This document shows positions 1 to 6,229 of a stretch of DNA of 6,229 nt, piece after piece (position 1 is the stretch's first letter; every line of letters starts with the position of its first letter). The DNA comes from a virus (taxonomy: Duplodnaviria; Heunggongvirae; Uroviricota; Caudoviricetes). The notes beneath the pieces were generated by a model. That model had not been told where the DNA came from and ran no database searches. It saw only the letters and a list, made by a program, of their open reading frames with translations. Where the stretch lies: the IMG/VR virus record IMGVR_UViG_2534681999_000014, positions 1 through 6,229 of that record, one strand, 5' to 3'. Made by a program: the position numbers and the translations under genes.

Positions 1-142
1 ATTTTGTGATGCAGTGCCTGGTGCCTCCAGGTGACGTTAACCAGTTAACAATTAACGCCGGATACAGAGAATCCACCCATAACACTGTTTTTGGTTTTAA
101 CTGTTCCGCGTGCGCTTAGCCGCATTCACCGCATCACAAAAT
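1..142. repeat. Perfect 12-bp inverted repeat pair, ATTTTGTGATGC (1-12) and GCATCACAAAAT (131-142), flanking about 118 bp
   Basis: Seen directly: 131-142 is the exact reverse complement of 1-12. The left arm touches the window edge, so it may extend beyond the window. Function unknown. Confidence 0.5.
36..57. repeat. Three GTTAAC-core palindromic motifs at 8-bp spacing (GTTAAC 36-41, GTTAAC 44-49, TTAACG 53-57)
   Basis: Seen directly in ACGTTAACCAGTTAACAATTAACGCC. Regular spacing of a self-complementary hexamer suggests a protein-binding array; this is inference only. Confidence 0.35.
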
Positions 143-232
143 TCACTTTAAAAAGGGCGGCAGAGCAGTCACGGAGTAAAACTGATACCGCCAAATGTCA
201 CCAGAAAATTGATAACAGAGGGCGTTGTAGCG

Positions 233-269
233 GGGTTGTCACTTAAGCGTATGGTCAACCTGACAACCC
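233..269. other. Hairpin: 9-bp perfect inverted repeat GGGTTGTCA / TGACAACCC around a 19-nt loop that contains CTTAAG
   Basis: Seen directly: 233-241 and 261-269 are exact reverse complements. Followed by GGTGCATTTTCTGG, which is moderately T-rich. Could be a terminator of an upstream plus-strand gene or a regulatory structure; not resolved. Confidence 0.3.
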
Positions 270-461
270 GGTGCATTTTCTGGAGCAATGGAGGAAACCC
301 CAGCCATACTTACCGCCGCGCCATTTCGCGGACTGCCACAACCGGAAGCGCACGGTCGACGAAAATTTAACGATAGGCTATCTATGAACCAGCAACCTCG
401 CCGTGTGCTTTCGTGTTGTGTGCCTGCTTTTTACCACGTCAGGCGAGGTGGTCCCCGTTAT

Positions 462-507
462 TCCCCAACAACAAGGATCTTGTTAATCTGGATATCCCCA
501 ACAACAA
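462..507 (+). repeat. 13-bp direct repeat TCCCCAACAACAA x2 (462-474 and 495-507) upstream of the 546-1037 gene; a small palindrome AACAAG-gat-CTTGTT (470-484) with a GATC site lies between the copies
   Basis: Seen directly. Position about 40-85 bp upstream of the probable ATG at 546 suggests promoter or leader regulatory sites; inference. Confidence 0.35.
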
Positions 508-545
508 TAAGAGTATTGAATGTGATCGCTGAATTAACGGCAGCA

Positions 546-1037
546 ATGACGGCTATTCGTGAAACCGCCCAGATTGCAAAACTAATGAACGAGGCAAAAA
601 CTCAAGCTGAAGTAAATGCGGCTATTGGTGAACTGAACTCAAAGCTTGCATCTATTCAGCGCGAATGCGTGTCTCTCGTTGAGCTGGTGGGCACTTATCA
701 AGAAATAAATGCTTCTCTCAAAGCTAAAATTGCAGAATTTGAAAACTTTGAGGCTCAGACGGAAGGTTATATCCTTAGCCAACTTGAGTCGGGAACTTTT
801 GTGTACTCGAAGGAGGTAACCGTGAACGGCGGCAGCATAATCATGCATCTTTGTCCAAAATGTTTTGGACAAAAGATAGTATCGATACTTCAGCCATTCC
901 CGGTTAGAGAATATGAATTTTTTCATAAAAGCAGGTGCCTGTACTGTGAAGATCAGTTTCTTATGAATAAAAATCCGGATTACGTATCACCTCCATCTAT
1001 TGAAGAGTTGGCCAGAAAACTGAACGGCAATCTGTAG
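546..1037 (+). CDS. Hypothetical protein, 163 aa: N-terminal predicted coiled-coil, C-terminal CxxC-X24-CxxC zinc-ribbon-like motif; AT-rich cargo gene convergent with the leftward prophage genes
   Basis: Part of the 288-1037 ORF in the track. The first 86 codons (288-545) are R/P-rich, more GC-rich and not protein-like, so the start is placed at ATG 546 (MTAIRETAQIAKLMNEAK...). In-frame TTG 520 and GTG 526 are alternatives; the SD is weak in all cases. Cys motifs CPKC and CLYC seen in the translation. The body of the gene is visibly more AT-rich than neighbouring genes. No family recognised from memory. Confidence 0.5.
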   Translation: MTAIRETAQIAKLMNEAKTQAEVNAAIGELNSKLASIQRECVSLVELVGTYQEINASLKAKIAEFENFEAQTEGYILSQLESGTFVYSKEVTVNGGSIIMHLCPKCFGQKIVSILQPFPVREYEFFHKSRCLYCEDQFLMNKNPDYVSPPSIEELARKLNGNL

Positions 1038-1151
1038 ATTTTTACTGTTATGGATATCCAGATTGTTAAAGAGCATGCCGGATGCTTGCTTGTGTCCGGC
1101 GCGTGTGCACCACTCTCCCCCCGTGGAGGATTCCTTAATTACCAGATTTCA

Positions 1152-1304
1152 TTAGTCAGAGTTTCTTGCTAACCAGCGACGCGCGCCAGATTCGGTTTTA
1201 AACGTTTTGCTTTTGGTATACGTCATCGCGGTGAACGTGCCGTCCTGGTTGGGAAACACGCCGTACACCAGAGATTCGTTGTTGCCAAGATCGATAGTAT
1301 CCAT
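1152..1304 (-). CDS. Small prophage protein, 50 aa, DUF1391 family (YdaF/YdfA-like)
   Basis: The track ORF 1152-1343 begins with TTG; the internal ATG at 1304 is preceded by GAGG with a 6-nt spacer (GGGAAATGAGGTCAACATG on the minus strand), so the start is placed at 1304. Translation MDTIDLGNNESLVYGVFPNQDGTFTAMTYTKSKTFKTESGARRWLARNSD matches my memory of the small Rac/Qin prophage proteins YdaF/YdfA. Stop TAA at 1154-1152. Confidence 0.6.
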   Translation of the reverse strand: MDTIDLGNNESLVYGVFPNQDGTFTAMTYTKSKTFKTESGARRWLARNSD

Positions 1305-1490
1305 GTTGACCTCATTTCCCCTTAACGCCGGGTAGCGGAACAAAAACCTGCTGCATCGTTATTAAAGTTGAACCCTGCCGTCATGTTCATACGCCTCGGG
1401 CTGGCTACTTACCCCCTGACCACTGCTTGGTAACTCGAAGTATTGCCCGGCGTTCTGTGGGGCGGGGTGGGTGGTTGGTGTATGTAATCT

Positions 1491-1530
1491 ACAATAAAAA
1501 ACTGTTTTTGTGTCAACAGTTTTTAATTGT
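1491..1530. promoter_or_regulatory. OL-like operator: two 15-bp ACA-N9-TGT sites (ACAATAAAAAACTGT 1491-1505; ACAGTTTTTAATTGT 1516-1530) with a TTGACA -35-like hexamer on the minus strand in the spacer (plus coordinates 1511-1516)
   Basis: Seen directly: the first site is identical to the site at 2526-2540 and the second differs by 1 nt from 2550-2564. The location leftward of the repressor operon and upstream of the leftward DUF1391 gene matches the lambda OL/pL position. Confidence 0.6.
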
Positions 1531-1540
1531 TGTTTTGGGC

Positions 1541-1563
1541 AAAAAAATCCCTCGAAAGAGGGA
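1541..1563 (-). terminator. Rho-independent terminator for the minus-strand repressor-antitoxin-toxin operon
   Basis: Minus strand reads TCCCTC-TTTC-GAGGGA followed by TTTTTTT: a perfect 6-bp stem (1548-1553 / 1558-1563) with a 4-nt loop and a 7-U tract (1541-1547), starting 18 nt after the ParE stop codon (1584-1582). Confidence 0.55.
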
Positions 1564-1581
1564 GTATGAAAATTGTTCAAC

Positions 1582-1869
1582 TCAGATAGAGAAGGGAAAT
1601 TGTCGCCGAGAATGTGTCACGCTTACAATCTCAATGCTTGAAGCAGCTACTCTGTACAGGATTATGTAGTTAGGGTGGGTCACGATCTCTCTCAATCCAG
1701 AAACCCGTTCGCTTGGTGGATATAAGTACGGATGCTCAGATAGAGGTAATACCGATGTTTCAATGCGTATTTTTAGTCTACGTGCTGCCGGTGGGTTCTC
1801 CTTGGCGATGTAAGTTATGATCTGGCGCAAATCATCGCGAGCAGACGGTAGCCATAAAATGGGTAACAT
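1582..1869 (-). CDS. parE2: Type II toxin, ParE/RelE superfamily (ParE2-like)
   Basis: 95-aa ORF MLPILWLPSARDDLRQIITYIAKENPPAARRL...YIILYRVAASSIEIVSVTHSRRQ shows the ParE pattern (L.W.P.A..DL..I..YI...NP.AA; Y.I.YRV....IEI..V.H..R). Its ATG (1869-1867) overlaps the upstream antitoxin TAA (1871-1869) by 1 nt, the classic translationally coupled antitoxin-toxin order. The gene symbol is from memory of the E. coli O157 paaR2-paaA2-parE2 system and was not verified by search. Confidence 0.85.
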   Translation of the reverse strand: MLPILWLPSARDDLRQIITYIAKENPPAARRLKIRIETSVLPLSEHPYLYPPSERVSGLREIVTHPNYIILYRVAASSIEIVSVTHSRRQFPFSI

Positions 1870-2060
1870 TACTCGCTCTTGTTAGTTACAGCAATTTGAG
1901 CAATAAGATTTTCCATTTCAGCCATTACCTCGTCATGTGGAATTGCGGGGCGAGTGTCTGCAAGGCTTGACGTTACTTTAGTGCGCAACCATTCGTTGTA
2001 ACTGTTTTCTTGTTCGGTAGTTTCGAATTCTGAAACTATCGGAGAAAGGGCTGTACCCAT
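1869..2060 (-). CDS. paaA2: Antitoxin of the ParE toxin, 63 aa, PaaA2-like
   Basis: ORF MGTALSPIVSEFETTEQENSYNEWLRTKVTSSLADTRPAIPHDEVMAEMENLIAQIAVTNKSE lies immediately upstream of and overlaps the ParE gene. SD AGGAG sits 7 nt upstream of the ATG (2060-2058). Size and the motifs SPxVSEFET...ENSYNEWLR.KV..SLAD.RPAIPHDEV match what I recall of PaaA2; recalled, not searched. Confidence 0.75.
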   Translation of the reverse strand: MGTALSPIVSEFETTEQENSYNEWLRTKVTSSLADTRPAIPHDEVMAEMENLIAQIAVTNKSE

Positions 2061-2087
2061 GGCATAACTCCTCTTCTTGTACTGTGG

Positions 2088-2489
2088 TCACGCCCGGCGG
2101 CTTTTTTGTGCCGCCAGCCACCTAGCAATGGTTTCTTCCATTGATTTTTTCTTGTCTTTGATTTCTTGAAGCATTTTTTCTTGGTCTTCCTCAGGAAACG
2201 CACTAAAAGCTTGGAGCAGTTCGCGTTGGCGAGGACCAATTTTCATCGTGTCAGGGGTGAAAATTTGCTCACACTCTTCAGGAGGCAATAAAAACCAATG
2301 CAATGGATGCCCTGAAACCTCAACCAGTTTATCCAAACTTGAGGCTTTAGGTGTAGCCTTACCGCTGACCCATTGTTGAACAGTTTGTTGTGTCACACCA
2401 ATTCTACGGGCAAGCTCAGCCTGGCTCCATCCAGTTTCCTGAAGAAGCTTGCTGATTCTGTACATAGATACTTCTAGGGCGCTCATCAT
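2088..2489 (-). CDS. paaR2: HTH XRE-family transcriptional repressor: CI-like lysogeny repressor (RacR/DicA-like architecture) and probable third component (PaaR2-like) of the toxin-antitoxin operon
   Basis: 133-aa ORF with an N-terminal helix-turn-helix (SQAELARRIGVTQQTVQQWVSG) and a C-terminal region (ELLQAFSAFPEEDQEKMLQEIKDK) resembling the DicA-type C-terminus. Divergent from the Cro-like gene across a multi-site operator; 27 nt upstream of the antitoxin on the same strand. No SD upstream of ATG 2489, so the mRNA may be leaderless; an alternative start is M9 at 2465. Confidence 0.8.
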   Translation of the reverse strand: MMSALEVSMYRISKLLQETGWSQAELARRIGVTQQTVQQWVSGKATPKASSLDKLVEVSGHPLHWFLLPPEECEQIFTPDTMKIGPRQRELLQAFSAFPEEDQEKMLQEIKDKKKSMEETIARWLAAQKSRRA

Positions 2490-2500
2490 TATTCAATTTT

Positions 2501-2564
2501 ACAGGTAAATACTGTTAAAAGCATCACAATAAAAAACTGTTGATTGCATACAGTTTTTTATTGT
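2501..2564. promoter_or_regulatory. OR-like tripartite operator: 15-bp ACA-N9-TGT sites at 2501-2515 (ACAGGTAAATACTGT, weakest), 2526-2540 (ACAATAAAAAACTGT) and 2550-2564 (ACAGTTTTTTATTGT), centres 24-25 bp apart; divergent promoters embedded
   Basis: Seen directly: 2526-2540 and 2550-2564 are perfect reverse complements of each other. A -35-like TTGATT (2540-2545) lies in the spacer between them on the plus strand, and TATAGT (2575-2580) is a strong -10 candidate upstream of the ydaS-like SD GAGGAGG (2587-2593). On the minus strand, TAAAAT (plus 2496-2501) lies 6 nt from the repressor ATG. Confidence 0.65.
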
Positions 2565-2597
2565 AGGCTTTGCTTATAGTTTTTAGAGGAGGGCAAA

Positions 2598-2870
2598 ATG
2601 CTAGATAGCACTCGCGAAAAAATTAGGCAGAAATACACTCAGGCTGAAATAGGTCGTTATATGGGGGTCGCTCAACAGACTGTTTGGCAATGGTTTAGCT
2701 TTGGCGTTCCCCCAAAGCAGGTAATTCCGTTATGCCAACTAATGAAGTGGGAAGTTACCCCGCATGAAATCCGCCCAGATATTTATCCTAACCCAACCGA
2801 CGGTTTACCTGTTGGATGTAAGGTTAACACATCAAATGCGCCGGAGTTGATTCATGAAAATCAAGCATGA
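2598..2870 (+). CDS. ydaS: Cro-like small DNA-binding protein, YdaS family
   Basis: 90-aa ORF with strong SD GAGGAGG 4 nt upstream. HTH region AEIGRYMGVAQQTVWQWF followed by VIPLCQLMKWEVTPHEIRPDIYP resembles E. coli Rac YdaS as I recall it (…PAIERATRGEVLCEELRPDIDW). Divergent from the repressor. Confidence 0.75.
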   Translation: MLDSTREKIRQKYTQAEIGRYMGVAQQTVWQWFSFGVPPKQVIPLCQLMKWEVTPHEIRPDIYPNPTDGLPVGCKVNTSNAPELIHENQA

Positions 2871-3279
2871 ACACATCCGCATGGCGATGAATGCCTGGGC
2901 GCATCCGGACGGCGAAAAAGTACCGGCTGCGAAAATTACCAAAGCGTATTTCGAGCTGGGAATGACGTTCCCGGAACTGTATGACGACAGCCATCCGGAA
3001 GCCATGGCTCGCAATACTCAGAAAATTTTCCGCTGGGTGGAGAAAGACACTCCTGATGCGGTTAAAAAAATTCAGGCGTTGTTACCAGCGATCGAAAAAG
3101 CGATGCCGCCTCCGCTGGTGGCCCGAATGCGCAGCCACAGTTCCGCTTATTTTCGGGAGTTGGTAGAGACGAAGGAACGGCTGGTGAAAGATATTGATGA
3201 TTTCGTTGCATCAGCGATCGTTCTGTTCGATCAGATGAATCGTGGTGGCCCGGCAGGAAACACTCTGGCTGTGCATTAA
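2854..3279 (+). CDS. ydaT: YdaT-family protein (CII-like functional analog)
   Basis: 141-aa ORF starting MKIKHEHI and ending ...VH, with a central KIQALLPAI segment; these match the start, end and central motif of E. coli YdaT as I recall it. SD GGAG 7 nt upstream of the ATG. The start overlaps the ydaS-like 3' end by 17 nt. Confidence 0.75.
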   Translation: MKIKHEHIRMAMNAWAHPDGEKVPAAKITKAYFELGMTFPELYDDSHPEAMARNTQKIFRWVEKDTPDAVKKIQALLPAIEKAMPPPLVARMRSHSSAYFRELVETKERLVKDIDDFVASAIVLFDQMNRGGPAGNTLAVH

Positions 3280-3292
3280 TTGGGTAATAAAT

Positions 3293-3802
3293 ATGAGTAA
3301 TGACAAAAAATTGACACTGAGCGTTTACGAAAACAGTCCGCACATCTGGCGTGGCGGTTTATCTGATGTGGAGCTGGCAGAGTGGTTGATACATAAAGCT
3401 AATGCGCTGCTCTGGCGTTTGTCAGCCAGAGAACAGCGCAAGGAAACCAGAATAAAGCTGGCTGATGCAGAAGCGTGTGCCGGGCTTATTGAGGATTATA
3501 CAAATCTTGGTATTTCTTCAGCAGAGAGTGATCCCATTCAGCCTCTGAGCAGGGAGTCAATCCAGCACGCTGGTTGTATGGCACATCTTGTAACTGCTCG
3601 TCAACATGAGGTGGGTATTGGATCACTTCCGGCGGGATATTCGCTGATTCCAGAGCTGGTTGAAGCAAGAAAATCAGTTCAGAAAAAGAGAGATGACGCA
3701 CTTCAATTATTGAGAGAGCACTATGGCGCGATACCAGAATGCGAACAGCGTCGATACCCTGAAGGTTATGAATGGATGCAGTCTCTTTTTGAAGTTCGCT
3801 AA
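3293..3802 (+). CDS. Hypothetical protein, 169 aa, unknown function, inserted between the ydaT-like and replication genes
   Basis: Track ORF 3242-3802. The first ATG is at 3293 (MSNDKKLTLSVYENSPHIWRGG...), 14 nt after the ydaT-like stop; the region 3242-3292 overlaps the ydaT-like 3' end in another frame. Same orientation as the early-right operon. SD weak. No family recognised. Confidence 0.5.
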   Translation: MSNDKKLTLSVYENSPHIWRGGLSDVELAEWLIHKANALLWRLSAREQRKETRIKLADAEACAGLIEDYTNLGISSAESDPIQPLSRESIQHAGCMAHLVTARQHEVGIGSLPAGYSLIPELVEARKSVQKKRDDALQLLREHYGAIPECEQRRYPEGYEWMQSLFEVR

Positions 3803-4019
3803 TCAATATGTCGAGACGAAGGTATGTTTCGGCGCGCAGCCAGGCTCTGTAATCCGGGAGCATTTCGGGGCTGTTACACCAGCGGTTTGTTGCTGCAACA
3901 TTTAATACATGAGCCTGATAAAGGCTTTTCAAAAAATACATGTCGAACCTCCTCTGGTTCTGTCGATTGGGAACCACAGATTATATCCGGAGGAAGGTTC
4001 GGCACCAGATGAGGTAGCC

Positions 4020-5111
4020 ATGCGTGATTACGCAAAAGTTTCTCCGCGATTCTGGCTGGGAGAAACGGGGAGAGAACTTAGAAAGGCGGGTGCAGAAGCG
4101 CAAGTTGTTGCTTTTTACCTGATGACATCCCCTCACGCAAATATGCTGGGTTTGTATTACCTGCCAGTTTTATACCTTGCTCATGAAACCGGGCTTGGTC
4201 TGGAAGGGGCTTCAAAGGGGCTTAAAAGGGCTGTTGAAGCTGGTTTTTGTAGCTATGACCATGATGCAGAGATGGTCTGGGTCCATGAAATGGCAGCCTG
4301 GCAGGTTGGGGAAACGTTGAAGCCTGGCGATAACCGTTGTGCAGGTGTCAGGAATGAGTATGCATCATTACCTGAAAACGCTTTTCTGTCAGTGTTTTAC
4401 GACAGATATAAAACGGATTTCCATCTGGATGTGAGGCGGAATAATAGCCGAAATTCGGTAAGGGGCTTCGAAGGGGCTTTTAAGGGGCTTCGAAGCCAAG
4501 AACAGGAACAGGAGCAGGAGAAAGAACAGGAACAGGACAAAAACACTATGGTTCATGGCAAAAAAAACACCACGAACCAGGCAGGGGATGTTCAGACCGT
4601 CAATCCTGGTCAGCCAGCAGGCACGACACCGGAAGCCGATTCGGGCGCTGTGCAGCAGGTGATGACCGCAGGGTCGGAGCAATCACACCAACTGCAGCAG
4701 CCTGAAGCCGATTCCGCCATTCAGCGGGAAGCCGATCGGGTAGTCCCGGAAAGCACCGGGCAGTCTGTGGGACGAGTGGATTATCCGGATGTGTTCGAAC
4801 AGGTCTGGCGGGAATACCCGTTGCGTGCTGGGGCAAACCCGAAGAAATCCGCTTTCAGTGCCTGGAAGGCCAGATTGCGCGAGGGGGTGCCACCAGAGAC
4901 CATGCTGGATGGTGTGAGGCGTTACGCGAGATACCTGGCGGCGACCGGGAAAGCGGGAACGGAATTTGTTCAGCGAGCGACGACGTTTTTTGGGCCGGAC
5001 CGGAATTTTGAAAACCCCTGGTTGCTCCCGGTAAGCGGCACGAACAACCAGCGTTGTGTGAATCATATTTCTGAACCGGATACCGAAATTCCGCCGGGAT
5101 TCAGGGGGTGA
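4020..5111 (+). CDS. Phage replication initiation protein (lambda O-like / YdaU-position), with an internal Gln/Glu-rich linker and a conserved phage C-terminal domain
   Basis: Track ORF 3909-5111. The ATG at 4020 has SD GAGG 5 nt upstream, while ATG 3909 has none, so the start is placed at 4020 (MRDYAKVSPRFWLGETGRELRKAG...). The C-terminal segment DVFEQVWREYPLRAGANPKKSAFSAWKARL...ATTFFGPDRNFENPW resembles the conserved C-terminal domain of phage replication proteins (from memory). Position immediately upstream of the DnaC-like gene. Contains DNA iterons (see repeat features). Confidence 0.7.
   Translation: MRDYAKVSPRFWLGETGRELRKAGAEAQVVAFYLMTSPHANMLGLYYLPVLYLAHETGLGLEGASKGLKRAVEAGFCSYDHDAEMVWVHEMAAWQVGETLKPGDNRCAGVRNEYASLPENAFLSVFYDRYKTDFHLDVRRNNSRNSVRGFEGAFKGLRSQEQEQEQEKEQEQDKNTMVHGKKNTTNQAGDVQTVNPGQPAGTTPEADSGAVQQVMTAGSEQSHQLQQPEADSAIQREADRVVPESTGQSVGRVDYPDVFEQVWREYPLRAGANPKKSAFSAWKARLREGVPPETMLDGVRRYARYLAATGKAGTEFVQRATTFFGPDRNFENPWLLPVSGTNNQRCVNHISEPDTEIPPGFRG
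4204..4233. repeat. Iteron cluster A: AAGGGGCTT at 4204-4212 and 4215-4223 plus a degenerate copy (AAAGGGCTG, 4225-4233), 11-bp period
   Basis: Seen directly in GAAGGGGCTTCAAAGGGGCTTAAAAGGGCTG. Copies are read in three different reading frames (EGA / KGL / KRA), arguing for DNA-level rather than protein-level selection. Confidence 0.45.
4460..4490. repeat. Iteron cluster B: three perfect AAGGGGCTT copies at 4460-4468, 4471-4479 and 4482-4490 (exact 11-bp period), with palindromic CTTCGAAG cores; candidate replication origin inside the initiator gene
   Basis: Seen directly in TAAGGGGCTTCGAAGGGGCTTTTAAGGGGCTTCGAAGCC. The three copies are translated in three frames (RGF / EGA / KGL). Immediately followed by the linker-coding repeat and an A-rich stretch (4539-4570). 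Lambda ori is likewise a set of iterons inside the O gene. Confidence 0.5.
4500..4541 (+). repeat. In-frame hexamer array (GARCAG)n encoding the QEQEQEQEKEQEQD low-complexity linker
   Basis: Seen directly: GAACAG x2, GAGCAG, GAGAAA, GAACAG x2, GACAAA. The period is a multiple of 3 and is read in one frame, so this is a protein-level flexible acidic linker between the N- and C-terminal domains. Confidence 0.6.
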
Positions 5112-5117
5112 TGTGGC

Positions 5118-5864
5118 ATGAAAAACATTGCGGCAGCCGGGGTTCTTGAACGTATTCGCAGACTTGCACCACAGGCGTCGGTTCCACCGTACCGGACGGT
5201 GGAGGAGTGGCGGGAATGGCAACTTGCTGAAGGACGAAAACGCAGCGAGGAGATTAACCGCCAGAATCACCAGTTGCGGGTGGAAAAAATCCTGAATCGT
5301 TCGGGCATCCAGCCTCTGCACAGCAAATGCTCGTTTGCGAATTATCAGGTGCAGAACGACGGGCAAAAATACGCGCTGAGCCAGGCCAAATCCATAGCTG
5401 ACGAACTGATGACCGGGTGCACGAATTTTGTGTTCAGCGGTAAAACCGGCACCGGGAAAAATCACCTTGCAGCGGCGATGGGTAACCGGCTGATGGCGAA
5501 GGGGCGCAGCGTGATTATCGTCACCGTGTCTGATGTCATGAGCGTGTTGCATGACAGCTACGACAACGGCAAATCCGGGGAAAAATTTTTACAGGAGCTT
5601 TGCAGTGTTGATTTGCTGGTCCTGGATGAAATAGGCGTTCAGCGGGAGACGAAAAACGAGCAGGTGGTATTACACCAGATAATTGATCGCCGGACAGCAT
5701 CACTGTGCAGTGTCGGGATGTTAACAAACCTGAATCATGCCGCAATGAGTACACTTCTTGGTGAGAGGATTATGGACCGCATGACCATGAACGGTGGTCG
5801 ATGGGTGACGTTTAACTGGGATAGCTGGCGTCCAAATGTCAGCAATATGAGGGTTGTGAAGTAA
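5118..5864 (+). CDS. DnaC-like helicase loader, AAA+ ATPase of the DnaC/IstB family (lambda P functional analog, YdaV-position)
   Basis: 248-aa ORF with Walker A FSGKTGTGKNHLAAAMG and Walker B DLLVLDEIG. Start ATG 5118 follows the initiator stop (5109-5111) by 6 nt, with a G-rich SD (5103-5108). Confidence 0.9.
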   Translation: MKNIAAAGVLERIRRLAPQASVPPYRTVEEWREWQLAEGRKRSEEINRQNHQLRVEKILNRSGIQPLHSKCSFANYQVQNDGQKYALSQAKSIADELMTGCTNFVFSGKTGTGKNHLAAAMGNRLMAKGRSVIIVTVSDVMSVLHDSYDNGKSGEKFLQELCSVDLLVLDEIGVQRETKNEQVVLHQIIDRRTASLCSVGMLTNLNHAAMSTLLGERIMDRMTMNGGRWVTFNWDSWRPNVSNMRVVK

Positions 5865-5885
5865 TTTTGTCCGGAGGAAATTTTA

Positions 5886-6229
5886 ATGGAAACCGTATCT
5901 GACGCACTGAAAGCACTGAAAAAAGCCTCTTCACATGTGGTGGCAGCTCGCCTTGGAATCAGTCGTGAAGAGGCTGTCAACGAGCTGTGGGAACTCAAAA
6001 TAAATGGCGTCGTTGATAAAACTGGTCACACCTGGTTTCTGGCTGGCGAAGGTGAATCCCGGGTAACCGAAGAGCGGCCAGTAAAATCTGAAGCACAGGA
6101 TATGCTGACCGGGGAGGTCGAACAAAAAGTTACCGCAGACATGATGATTGAGTTTATCGGTCAGGATGGGGCTAAAACGTGTGAGGAACTGGCGGGTAAG
6201 TTCGGTGTCAGTACTCGCAAGGTTGCTTC
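5886..6229 (+). CDS. Partial CDS (5' end, runs off the window): hypothetical prophage protein with an N-terminal winged-helix-like segment, possibly YdaW/DUF1627-like
   Basis: Not in the supplied track because it has no stop inside the window. I translated it by hand from ATG 5886 (METVSDALKALKKASSHVVAARLGISREEAVNELWELKINGVVDKTGHTWFLAGEGE...) and found no stop codon through 6229. SD GGAGG (5873-5877) 8 nt upstream. Family assignment is a weak recollection. Confidence 0.6.
   Translation, partial: METVSDALKALKKASSHVVAARLGISREEAVNELWELKINGVVDKTGHTWFLAGEGESRVTEERPVKSEAQDMLTGEVEQKVTADMMIEFIGQDGAKTCEELAGKFGVSTRKVA

Follow-up and report, generated by a model that had tools for sequence, protein, structure and literature searches.

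The promoter pO of phage lambda lies between cII and O, and oop, the RNA of this site, is a 77-nucleotide (nt) non-coding transcript with a terminator of its own. Coliphage 186 (pR/pL) and Enterococcus pCF10 (prgQ/prgX) have promoters that face each other, and exclusive states are achieved by transcriptional interference together with antisense pairing. Long antiparallel coding overlaps are disputed, as most candidates are young and poorly conserved and rest on noisy expression data. Those of Escherichia coli O157:H7 are reportedly for the most part short or young open reading frames (ORFs) that are embedded in a conserved 'mother' gene and supported by Ribo-seq. Published accounts of antisense overlapping genes in this organism include ano/ECs2385, asa, pop/ompA and others, with ano described as embedded within another gene (PMC5960689, PMC6294744, PMC9927249). 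Here we describe two convergent genes of E. coli O157:H7, called A and B, that share 317 nt of DNA on opposite strands. They lie in a stretch of 6,229 nt (the window; positions 1 to 6,229 of the IMG/VR record IMGVR_UViG_2534681999_000014), which is the immunity and early region of the cryptic prophage CP-933M; positions 3200-4100 of it are 100% identical to O157:H7 chromosomes and have a match in 527 of 5,426 complete E. coli genomes.

How does this locus compare with the known cases? Like the O157:H7 overlapping genes, and in the same organism, A and B use both strands of one piece of DNA, and standard annotation keeps only one of the two genes. Unlike them, A and B meet tail-to-tail, are of similar size and have homologues in several genera, and the support for the pair is comparative. 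It differs from the earlier O157:H7 proposals both in the kind of evidence and in the depth of conservation: the evidence is evolutionary and contains its own controls, namely stand-alone parts of both genes, an overlap under dual constraint and release of this constraint in a lineage that lost A, and the pair has been kept in several genera of enterobacteria and in four or more phage backbones. No description of the pair was found in the literature searched, where ECs1072, the name under which B is annotated, appears only in a microarray table. The families concerned, NF033230 for B and PHROG 8304 for A, are both uncharacterised, and neither database records that they share overlapping DNA.

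What does the interval between the CII-like gene ydaT and the replication genes encode? The sequence-only reading of the window, made without database searches, had seen there a plus-strand ORF for 169 residues at 3293-3802, followed by an untranslated gap at 3803-4019. The ORF is present as described and is gene A, which starts with ATG 13 nt past the stop codon of ydaT. The gap is not untranslated, as its first 139 nt (3803-3941) encode residues 1-46 of gene B. This gene runs on the minus strand from the ATG at 3941 to a stop at 3486 (151 residues, with the stop codon included in the coordinates) and covers the last 105 codons of A, so that the two genes overlap tail-to-tail over 317 nt at 3486-3802. 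RefSeq and the Prokaryotic Genome Annotation Pipeline (PGAP) give the coding sequence (CDS) 3486-3941 as 'ECs1072 family phage-associated protein', and the product scores 105.7 bits against the NF033230 hidden Markov model (curated cut-off 70) over model positions 3-141 of 142. A aligns end to end with phrog_8304, a family of no assigned function (positions 1-169 of 169, E-value 4.2e-120). Protein searches with either product return homologues in Salmonella and Klebsiella, the most distant at about 50% identity. Profile searches extend further, to 22 cluster representatives for A, whose homologues have about 26-50% identity, and to 35 homologue clusters for B with 29-33% identity; proteins of the B family are also named from Enterobacter, Serratia, Yokenella and Raoultella. 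An AlphaFold2 (AF2) model of B built from 30 sequences reaches a predicted local distance difference test score (pLDDT) of 90 and a predicted template modelling score (pTM) of 0.86, and the model of A, with a long helix at residues 25-70, a mean pLDDT of 70 and a pTM of 0.40. A canonical Shine-Dalgarno (SD) sequence precedes the start of A in most lineages. A GTG at 3242 was considered as an alternative start of A and rejected, since A would then overlap ydaT and the codon lacks conservation.

That both genes are real and that the overlap codes for both proteins is highly probable, and what carries this conclusion is a comparison of more than 20 divergent loci (designated here by L numbers) read from Escherichia, Salmonella and Klebsiella. 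In the overlap the first codon positions of A and B are opposed, as are the second position of A and the third of B, and the third of A and the second of B, so that a synonymous change in one gene strikes the second codon position of the other. Homologues with as little as about 33-50% identity have both ORFs open. Among eight loci the divergence at the three codon positions amounts to 0.30, 0.24 and 0.48 for A in the A-only segment (3299-3485) and to 0.27, 0.16 and 0.49 for B in the B-only segment (3803-3938), while it is flat in the overlap (0.28/0.31/0.25), which indicates dual constraint. A profile of 18 loci has the same pattern. The ratio of third- to second-position divergence in the A frame, about 2.7-2.9 in the A-only segment, drops from 2.9 to 0.7-1.1 in the overlap, and the corresponding ratio in the B frame from up to 3.9 to 1.0-1.4. 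Nature provides a control in the Salmonella locus L044, in which A is replaced and B intact. In pairs with L044 the wobble positions of B are saturated in the former overlap (divergence 0.66-0.79), whereas pairs of similar overall divergence with an intact A have values of 0.34-0.55 there, below those of the B-only part.

Moreover, the conservation of the A frame exceeds what the conservation of B would bring about. In a permutation test the B proteins were held fixed, synonymous codons were redrawn with identical codons kept identical, and BLOSUM conservation was scored in the A frame. Conservation in the overlap lies above the simulation in all nine A-intact pairs (p 0.0005-0.0055); the four L044 pairs show no such excess (p 0.75-0.96), nor does the B-only region when read in the same antisense frame (p 0.2-0.98). 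When synonymous codons are shuffled under a given B protein, the A frame is open with a probability of 0.0016 for the window and of 0.008-0.36 for the remaining loci of the simulation; the frame is nonetheless open at all of these loci, also where B is only 33-35% identical. Conversely, all 19 divergent viral contigs found by way of A contain an antisense ORF of the B family, with an overlap of about 250-265 nt. The 317-nt shared stretch is an unusually well-conserved case of DNA coding two proteins, and it constitutes a clean test case for the co-evolution of two proteins on one stretch of DNA.

Could B nevertheless be the only gene and A a shadow ORF, open by chance or through the codon usage of B? 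PGAP annotates B alone (A is retained by PHROGs and by some gene callers), neither Pfam nor NCBIfam has a match to A, the AF2 model of A is mediocre, and in three lineages A is lost or frameshifted with B surviving, all of which such a reading would accommodate. It is very improbable, since the A-frame codon signature and the invariant motifs SPHIW.GGL and LA.WL..AN lie in 3299-3485, outside B, and since all other lineages have A open, even where B is only 33% identical, against simulated odds of 0.0016-0.36 per locus. The excess of A-frame conservation in the overlap over the B-preserving simulation, with its negative controls, and the canonical SD ahead of A speak against it as well. B is a real gene under selection, and so, judged by the comparative evidence, is A, which would accordingly be expected to be translated. 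Codon signature, homologues and conservation beyond the simulation bear out the earlier idea of a genuine early-operon gene. The case also shows annotation pipelines systematically dropping one partner of an overlap.

A narrower possibility is that the function of A resides in its N-terminal ~64 residues only and that the last 85-105 codons are tolerated read-through antisense to B. The confidence of the A model peaks at residues 20-70 and falls below a pLDDT of 50 in parts of the overlap, the position of the A stop depends on the clade, and the B frame is slightly more constrained than the A frame in the overlap, as one would expect if this were so. It is unlikely all the same, though less so than a shadow ORF: the A frame is conserved above expectation in 9/9 pairs, the wobble sites of B are constrained in the overlap only with A present, the motifs Y..LG.S...SDPI.PLS.EAI and P.GYS.LP.L of the overlap are kept in homologues of 26-30% identity, and an early stop just past the A-only part occurs in degenerate lineages only.

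Several of these observations weigh against two fully functional, dual-coding genes. The AF2 model of A is only moderate, best at residues 20-70 and weakest in the overlap; the C-terminal end of A varies by clade, lying at about 3745 or 3802; the 18-locus profile gives the B frame slightly more constraint in the overlap; and A is lost in L044 and frameshifted in L042 and in L036/L108 with B intact in each, so that the pair is not strictly obligatory. On the side of expression, the available transcription start site (TSS) data are all from uninduced cultures, and a search for a terminator of B was negative, as 3200-4100 contains no minus-strand terminator-like site (the only terminator-like site there is on the plus strand, inside ydaT). 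The weaker fold confidence of A would fit a less constrained and possibly overprinted C-terminal half. The dual-coding reading remains the one favored by the permutation test and by the L044 control.

The pair is contained in a larger unit. In phage vB_EcoS-689R5 a ydaT/cII gene of 90.6% identity is followed by O only 71 nt later, and similarity to the window stops at 3277; this adjacency of cII and O, together with the end of similarity, identifies an indel of ~730 bp. At the other side, conservation across loci ends at about 4008, placing the inserted segment at 3280-4008. The sequence-only reading had likewise proposed an insertion between the CII-like and the replication genes, and the synteny with vB_EcoS-689R5 agrees with it. 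The segment is present in at least four different prophage backbones: 1) after ydaT in lambdoid prophages (window, L032, L047); 2) directly after cro (L041, L046, L048); 3) in Cox/integrase-type prophages of Salmonella and E. coli (L037-L039, L051); 4) downstream of a cI-like gene (L042). Its orientation is constant in all of them, with A along the flanking operon and B opposed. A tblastn search of B against 50,697 GenBank phage records gave no match, so that the segment is known only from prophages. The anatomy is thus likely that of a self-contained, horizontally mobile cassette of two convergent genes that share 317 bp. The fourth backbone is a metagenomic contig (L042:3001-3700), in which the cassette stands not after cII but downstream of the cI-like gene, with A split by a frameshift and B intact.

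What remains of the supposed gap after the N-terminus of B is taken away is mostly the upstream region of B. Positions 3942-4008 belong to a unit of 65-85 nt that has 27 invariant columns in 15 aligned sequences, is conserved better than either coding sequence and contains a -10 element, a CA-rich leader and an SD. The -10 box TATAAT (TGnTAGCCT in most relatives) lies at 3985-3980 on the minus strand, 7 nt upstream of the main TSS of B at 3972, which was mapped by Cappable-seq to EDL933 position 1257177 (PMC10469882, Tables S6 and S7; window position + 1,253,205 = NZ_CP008957.1). The SD GGAGG at 3948-3952, a strong ribosome-binding site, stands 6 nt ahead of the ATG at 3941, and the arrangement GGAGG-N6-ATG occurs in 14 of the 15 units, with AGAGG in L051. 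In the published tables TSS 3972 is the main start of RS32100 in 6/8 non-inducing conditions, with a relative read score of 19-52 there; the two other conditions have values of 0 (stat LB) and 9.9 at TSS 1257310 (stat MM). For the ydaS/pR start the same source lists relative read scores of 0-22 (PMC10469882, Tables S5-S7). A consensus promoter scan of 3200-4100 gave no sigma-70 site, and the B promoter is recognised only through its conservation and the published TSS data.

These features bear on the view, close to the original notion of a regulatory gap, that A is the sole gene, that 3803-4019 is non-coding and holds a terminator, a nut-like site or a small RNA, and that the annotation of B is an artefact. 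The plus strand of 3803-4019 indeed holds no gene and no ORF with homologues, and a leftward TSS at this location recalls lambda oop RNA. This view is nonetheless extremely improbable: 3803-3938 has a B-frame codon signature with a third- to second-position ratio of up to 3.9, B is intact without A in L044, has 35 homologue clusters and is modelled at pLDDT 90, and GGAGG-N6-ATG is conserved downstream of a mapped TSS. Of the elements proposed for the gap, a promoter is there, though it points leftward and drives B; neither a terminator nor a small RNA was found, with only chance-level matches in Rfam and none by ARAGORN. The palindrome TGTTGCTGCAACA is located at 3888-3900 as reported, where it encodes the B residues N-V-A-A-T, and is not conserved in related loci. 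The 6-bp stem TGGTTC...GAACCA is also present, with its start one base off, at 3955-3976 instead of 3954; it is at most partly conserved in relatives and cannot form in the main B mRNA, as TSS 3972 lies within its 3' arm. Perfect stems of at least 6 bp are common in Markov-1 random sequences of 217 nt, at least two occurring in 16% and at least one in 41% of them. Palindrome and hairpin are incidental and at chance level.

A different secondary structure may affect the translation of B. RNAalifold predicts that an upstream arm at 3993-4006 pairs with 3940-3952 on the minus strand, which comprises the SD and start codon of B, in a stem of 12 pairs with one compensatory double change. The leader from TSS 3972 is unstructured (-6.3 kcal/mol, z 0.1), whereas a folding energy of -27.6 kcal/mol (z -2.8) is predicted for the long one. 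Because the arm is upstream of TSS 3972 it is found only in longer transcripts, for example from TSS 4105, and such transcripts would, according to the folding model, sequester the SD of B. The opposite-sense RNA of the leader repeat folds equally well, and the pair statistics fail to discriminate between B-sense RNA, A-sense RNA and DNA. A minus-strand TSS at 4105 (EDL933 1257310), inside the initiator gene, is given in the tables for 6/8 conditions, and its transcript would hold the full leader stem. Readings of the unit 3942-4008 as a sigma-54 promoter, a tRNA fragment or an IHF (integration host factor) site were rejected on inspection of the sequence.

How might the two genes be expressed? 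Among the starts listed in the published TSS tables A has no promoter of its own, and no plus-strand start is listed inside ydaT or antisense to B, so that A appears to depend on read-through from pR and to be transcribed as part of the rightward early operon (PMC10469882). B, according to the same tables, is transcribed in uninduced cultures from TSS 3972. In the mechanism that we favour, B would be produced from its own promoter in the repressed lysogen, and the B mRNA, being antisense to A, would help to silence A. Once pR opens, strong rightward transcription would meet the B promoter and transcript head-on, raising A and lowering B. The shared DNA would in this way hard-wire a mutually exclusive expression of A and B, with one protein for each life-cycle state. 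Such a switch by convergent transcription is about as probable as its absence, and the two proteins may be functionally related. More generally, the case suggests that an overlap may itself tie two genes to opposite life-cycle states.

In this respect the locus combines traits of several known systems. As with lambda oop, a leftward promoter is located between the cII analogue and the replication gene, and transcription from it proceeds antisense to the 3' end of a gene in the pR operon; unlike oop, the B transcript encodes a conserved protein of 151 residues and overlaps coding sequence over 317 nt, and neither a terminator nor an Rfam match was found for it. Coliphage 186 and pCF10 share with A/B the convergent overlapping units, and by analogy the same mechanism is proposed here, but their overlaps consist of regulatory RNA or leader, whereas that of A and B is long and coding both ways. 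Finally, B resembles prophage morons such as lambda bor and lom in separating, as an insertion, two genes that are neighbours in related phages and in having its own promoter, active without induction. Unlike morons, it lies antisense inside the early operon and not in the late region, has no recognisable terminator and is joined to a gene on the opposite strand.

Two further minus-strand TSSs are listed within B, at window positions 3568 (EDL933 1256773) and 3487 (1256692) (PMC10469882). The start at 3568 is above noise in 8/8 conditions of the tables, with a relative read score of 8-69, and has the motif TTGACG 26-31 nt upstream (3604 to 3599); transcripts from it would run antisense to ydaT and the 5' half of A, in a manner reminiscent of lambda oop.

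The leader unit of B is not confined to B. In other viral contigs it also precedes unrelated genes for proteins of 70, 87 (Cys-rich), 89 and 153 residues, and such cargo genes (in L056, L062, L063, L065 and L067) are antisense and adjoin the replication gene, which suggests that the unit 3942-4008 is a portable promoter/leader and that it marks the site beside this gene as a cargo hotspot. A conserved promoter/leader unit and a hotspot for cargo between cII and the replication gene are thereby defined in prophages of pathogenic E. coli and Salmonella. A second pair of genes, found at L044:3554-4187 and in L063 (unit at 7469, minus strand), has this leader unit in front of it, too. Its B2 has 151-153 residues, and the 3' end overlaps a convergent A2 of about 138 residues by about 230-240 nt, in the same phase as A and B, with first codon positions opposed. 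The conservation test of the antisense frame gives p=0.004 in the overlap of A2 and B2 and 0.79 outside. Profile comparison of A2/B2 with A/B gave no significant similarity (hhalign E-value 0.0047 over 22 residues, and 0.13); the overlapping convergent architecture recurs either through very deep divergence or through convergence.

What could the proteins do? Searches of Pfam, NCBIfam, PHROG, PDB sequences and folds assigned neither A nor B to a known function, fold or defence system, and PADLOC gave 0 matches for A, B and four relatives; in particular, the family, PDB-sequence and fold searches returned no well-characterised homologue of the 169-residue product, the kind of match that would have overturned the sequence-only reading. 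A role of A in anti-defence or host takeover, as this reading put forward, is speculative. One idea is that A and B form a pair akin to toxin-antitoxin or defence/counter-defence systems, with B as an effector of the lysogen (exclusion, abortive infection or host modulation) and A as a lytic antagonist that frees phage development. It would be in keeping with the co-occurrence of A and B at 19/19 loci found by way of A, the opposite expression logic implied by orientation and the B promoter, the other small cargo behind the same leader unit at the site between cII and the replication gene, and the A2/B2 pair of the same design. With A and B both unmatched in PADLOC, Pfam, NCBIfam, PDB sequences and folds, and with B kept without A in three lineages, which argues against a B that is toxic unless opposed by A, this idea is doubtful, albeit not as unlikely as an A with a functional N-terminus only. 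Slightly better prospects, though still those of a tentative proposal, attach to a broader one: A/B and A2/B2 may together stand for a class of prophage module not recognised before, in which a 'lysogeny' and a 'lytic' protein are encoded on opposite strands, are expressed in mutual exclusion through convergent transcription and act in opposition on one process (for example a defence or exclusion effector and its self-antidote), the whole riding on the portable 65-85-nt unit at the cargo hotspot.

To the right, the cassette is followed by the O/DnaD-like replication initiator (4020-5111, plus strand; PGAP, PHROG and DNA similarity) and a DnaC-like loader (5118-5864). The sequence-only reading had considered that the initiator might start at 3909 and the gap be coding for this reason. 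This start was rejected: PGAP places it at 4020, the alignment with phrog_1701 begins at residue 38 if the protein is read from 3909 and at residue 1 if it is read from 4020, and similarity of the DNA to Stx phages starts exactly at 4020. Among relatives 3909-4019 has indels of lengths not divisible by three, and no homology in the plus frame extends over the stretch. The initiator gene itself contains five exact copies of AAGGGGCTT with 11-nt spacing in two clusters, at 4204-4223 and 4460-4490, that flank a QEQEQE low-complexity linker; six matches were reached in 0/200 shuffles. These repeats are probably iterons, belonging to an origin that, as in lambda, lies within the initiator gene.

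To the left of the cassette lies an immunity region of the paaR-paaA-parE / ydaS-ydaT type, with a ParE/RelE toxin and antitoxin (1582-2060, minus strand), a cI-like helix-turn-helix (HTH) repressor (2088-2489, minus strand), a YdaS/Cro-like gene (2598-2870) and the YdaT/CII-like gene (2854-3279). In the CP-933P copy of such a region PaaR2, YdaS and YdaT act like CI, Cro and CII (PMC8630535). Embedded in the region at 1582-2489 is a three-gene toxin-antitoxin module of the paaR-paaA-parE type, made up of the ParE/RelE toxin, a 63-residue antitoxin and the HTH regulator that doubles as prophage repressor. The main TSS listed for this cI-like (PaaR-type) repressor, at 2489 on the minus strand (EDL933 1255694), coincides with the first base of its start codon, so that the mRNA is leaderless. 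The cI mRNA that lambda makes from P_RM is leaderless, too. In the published tables the repressor TSS is by far the strongest start of the region, with a relative read score of about 360-650 (PMC10469882). A minus-strand TSS at 2813 (1256018), inside ydaS and just upstream of the ydaT start, is listed for 8/8 conditions and is consistent with the P_RE-like promoter described for CP-933P, and a plus-strand TSS at 2607 (1255812), 9 nt into ydaS, is likewise listed for 8/8 conditions.

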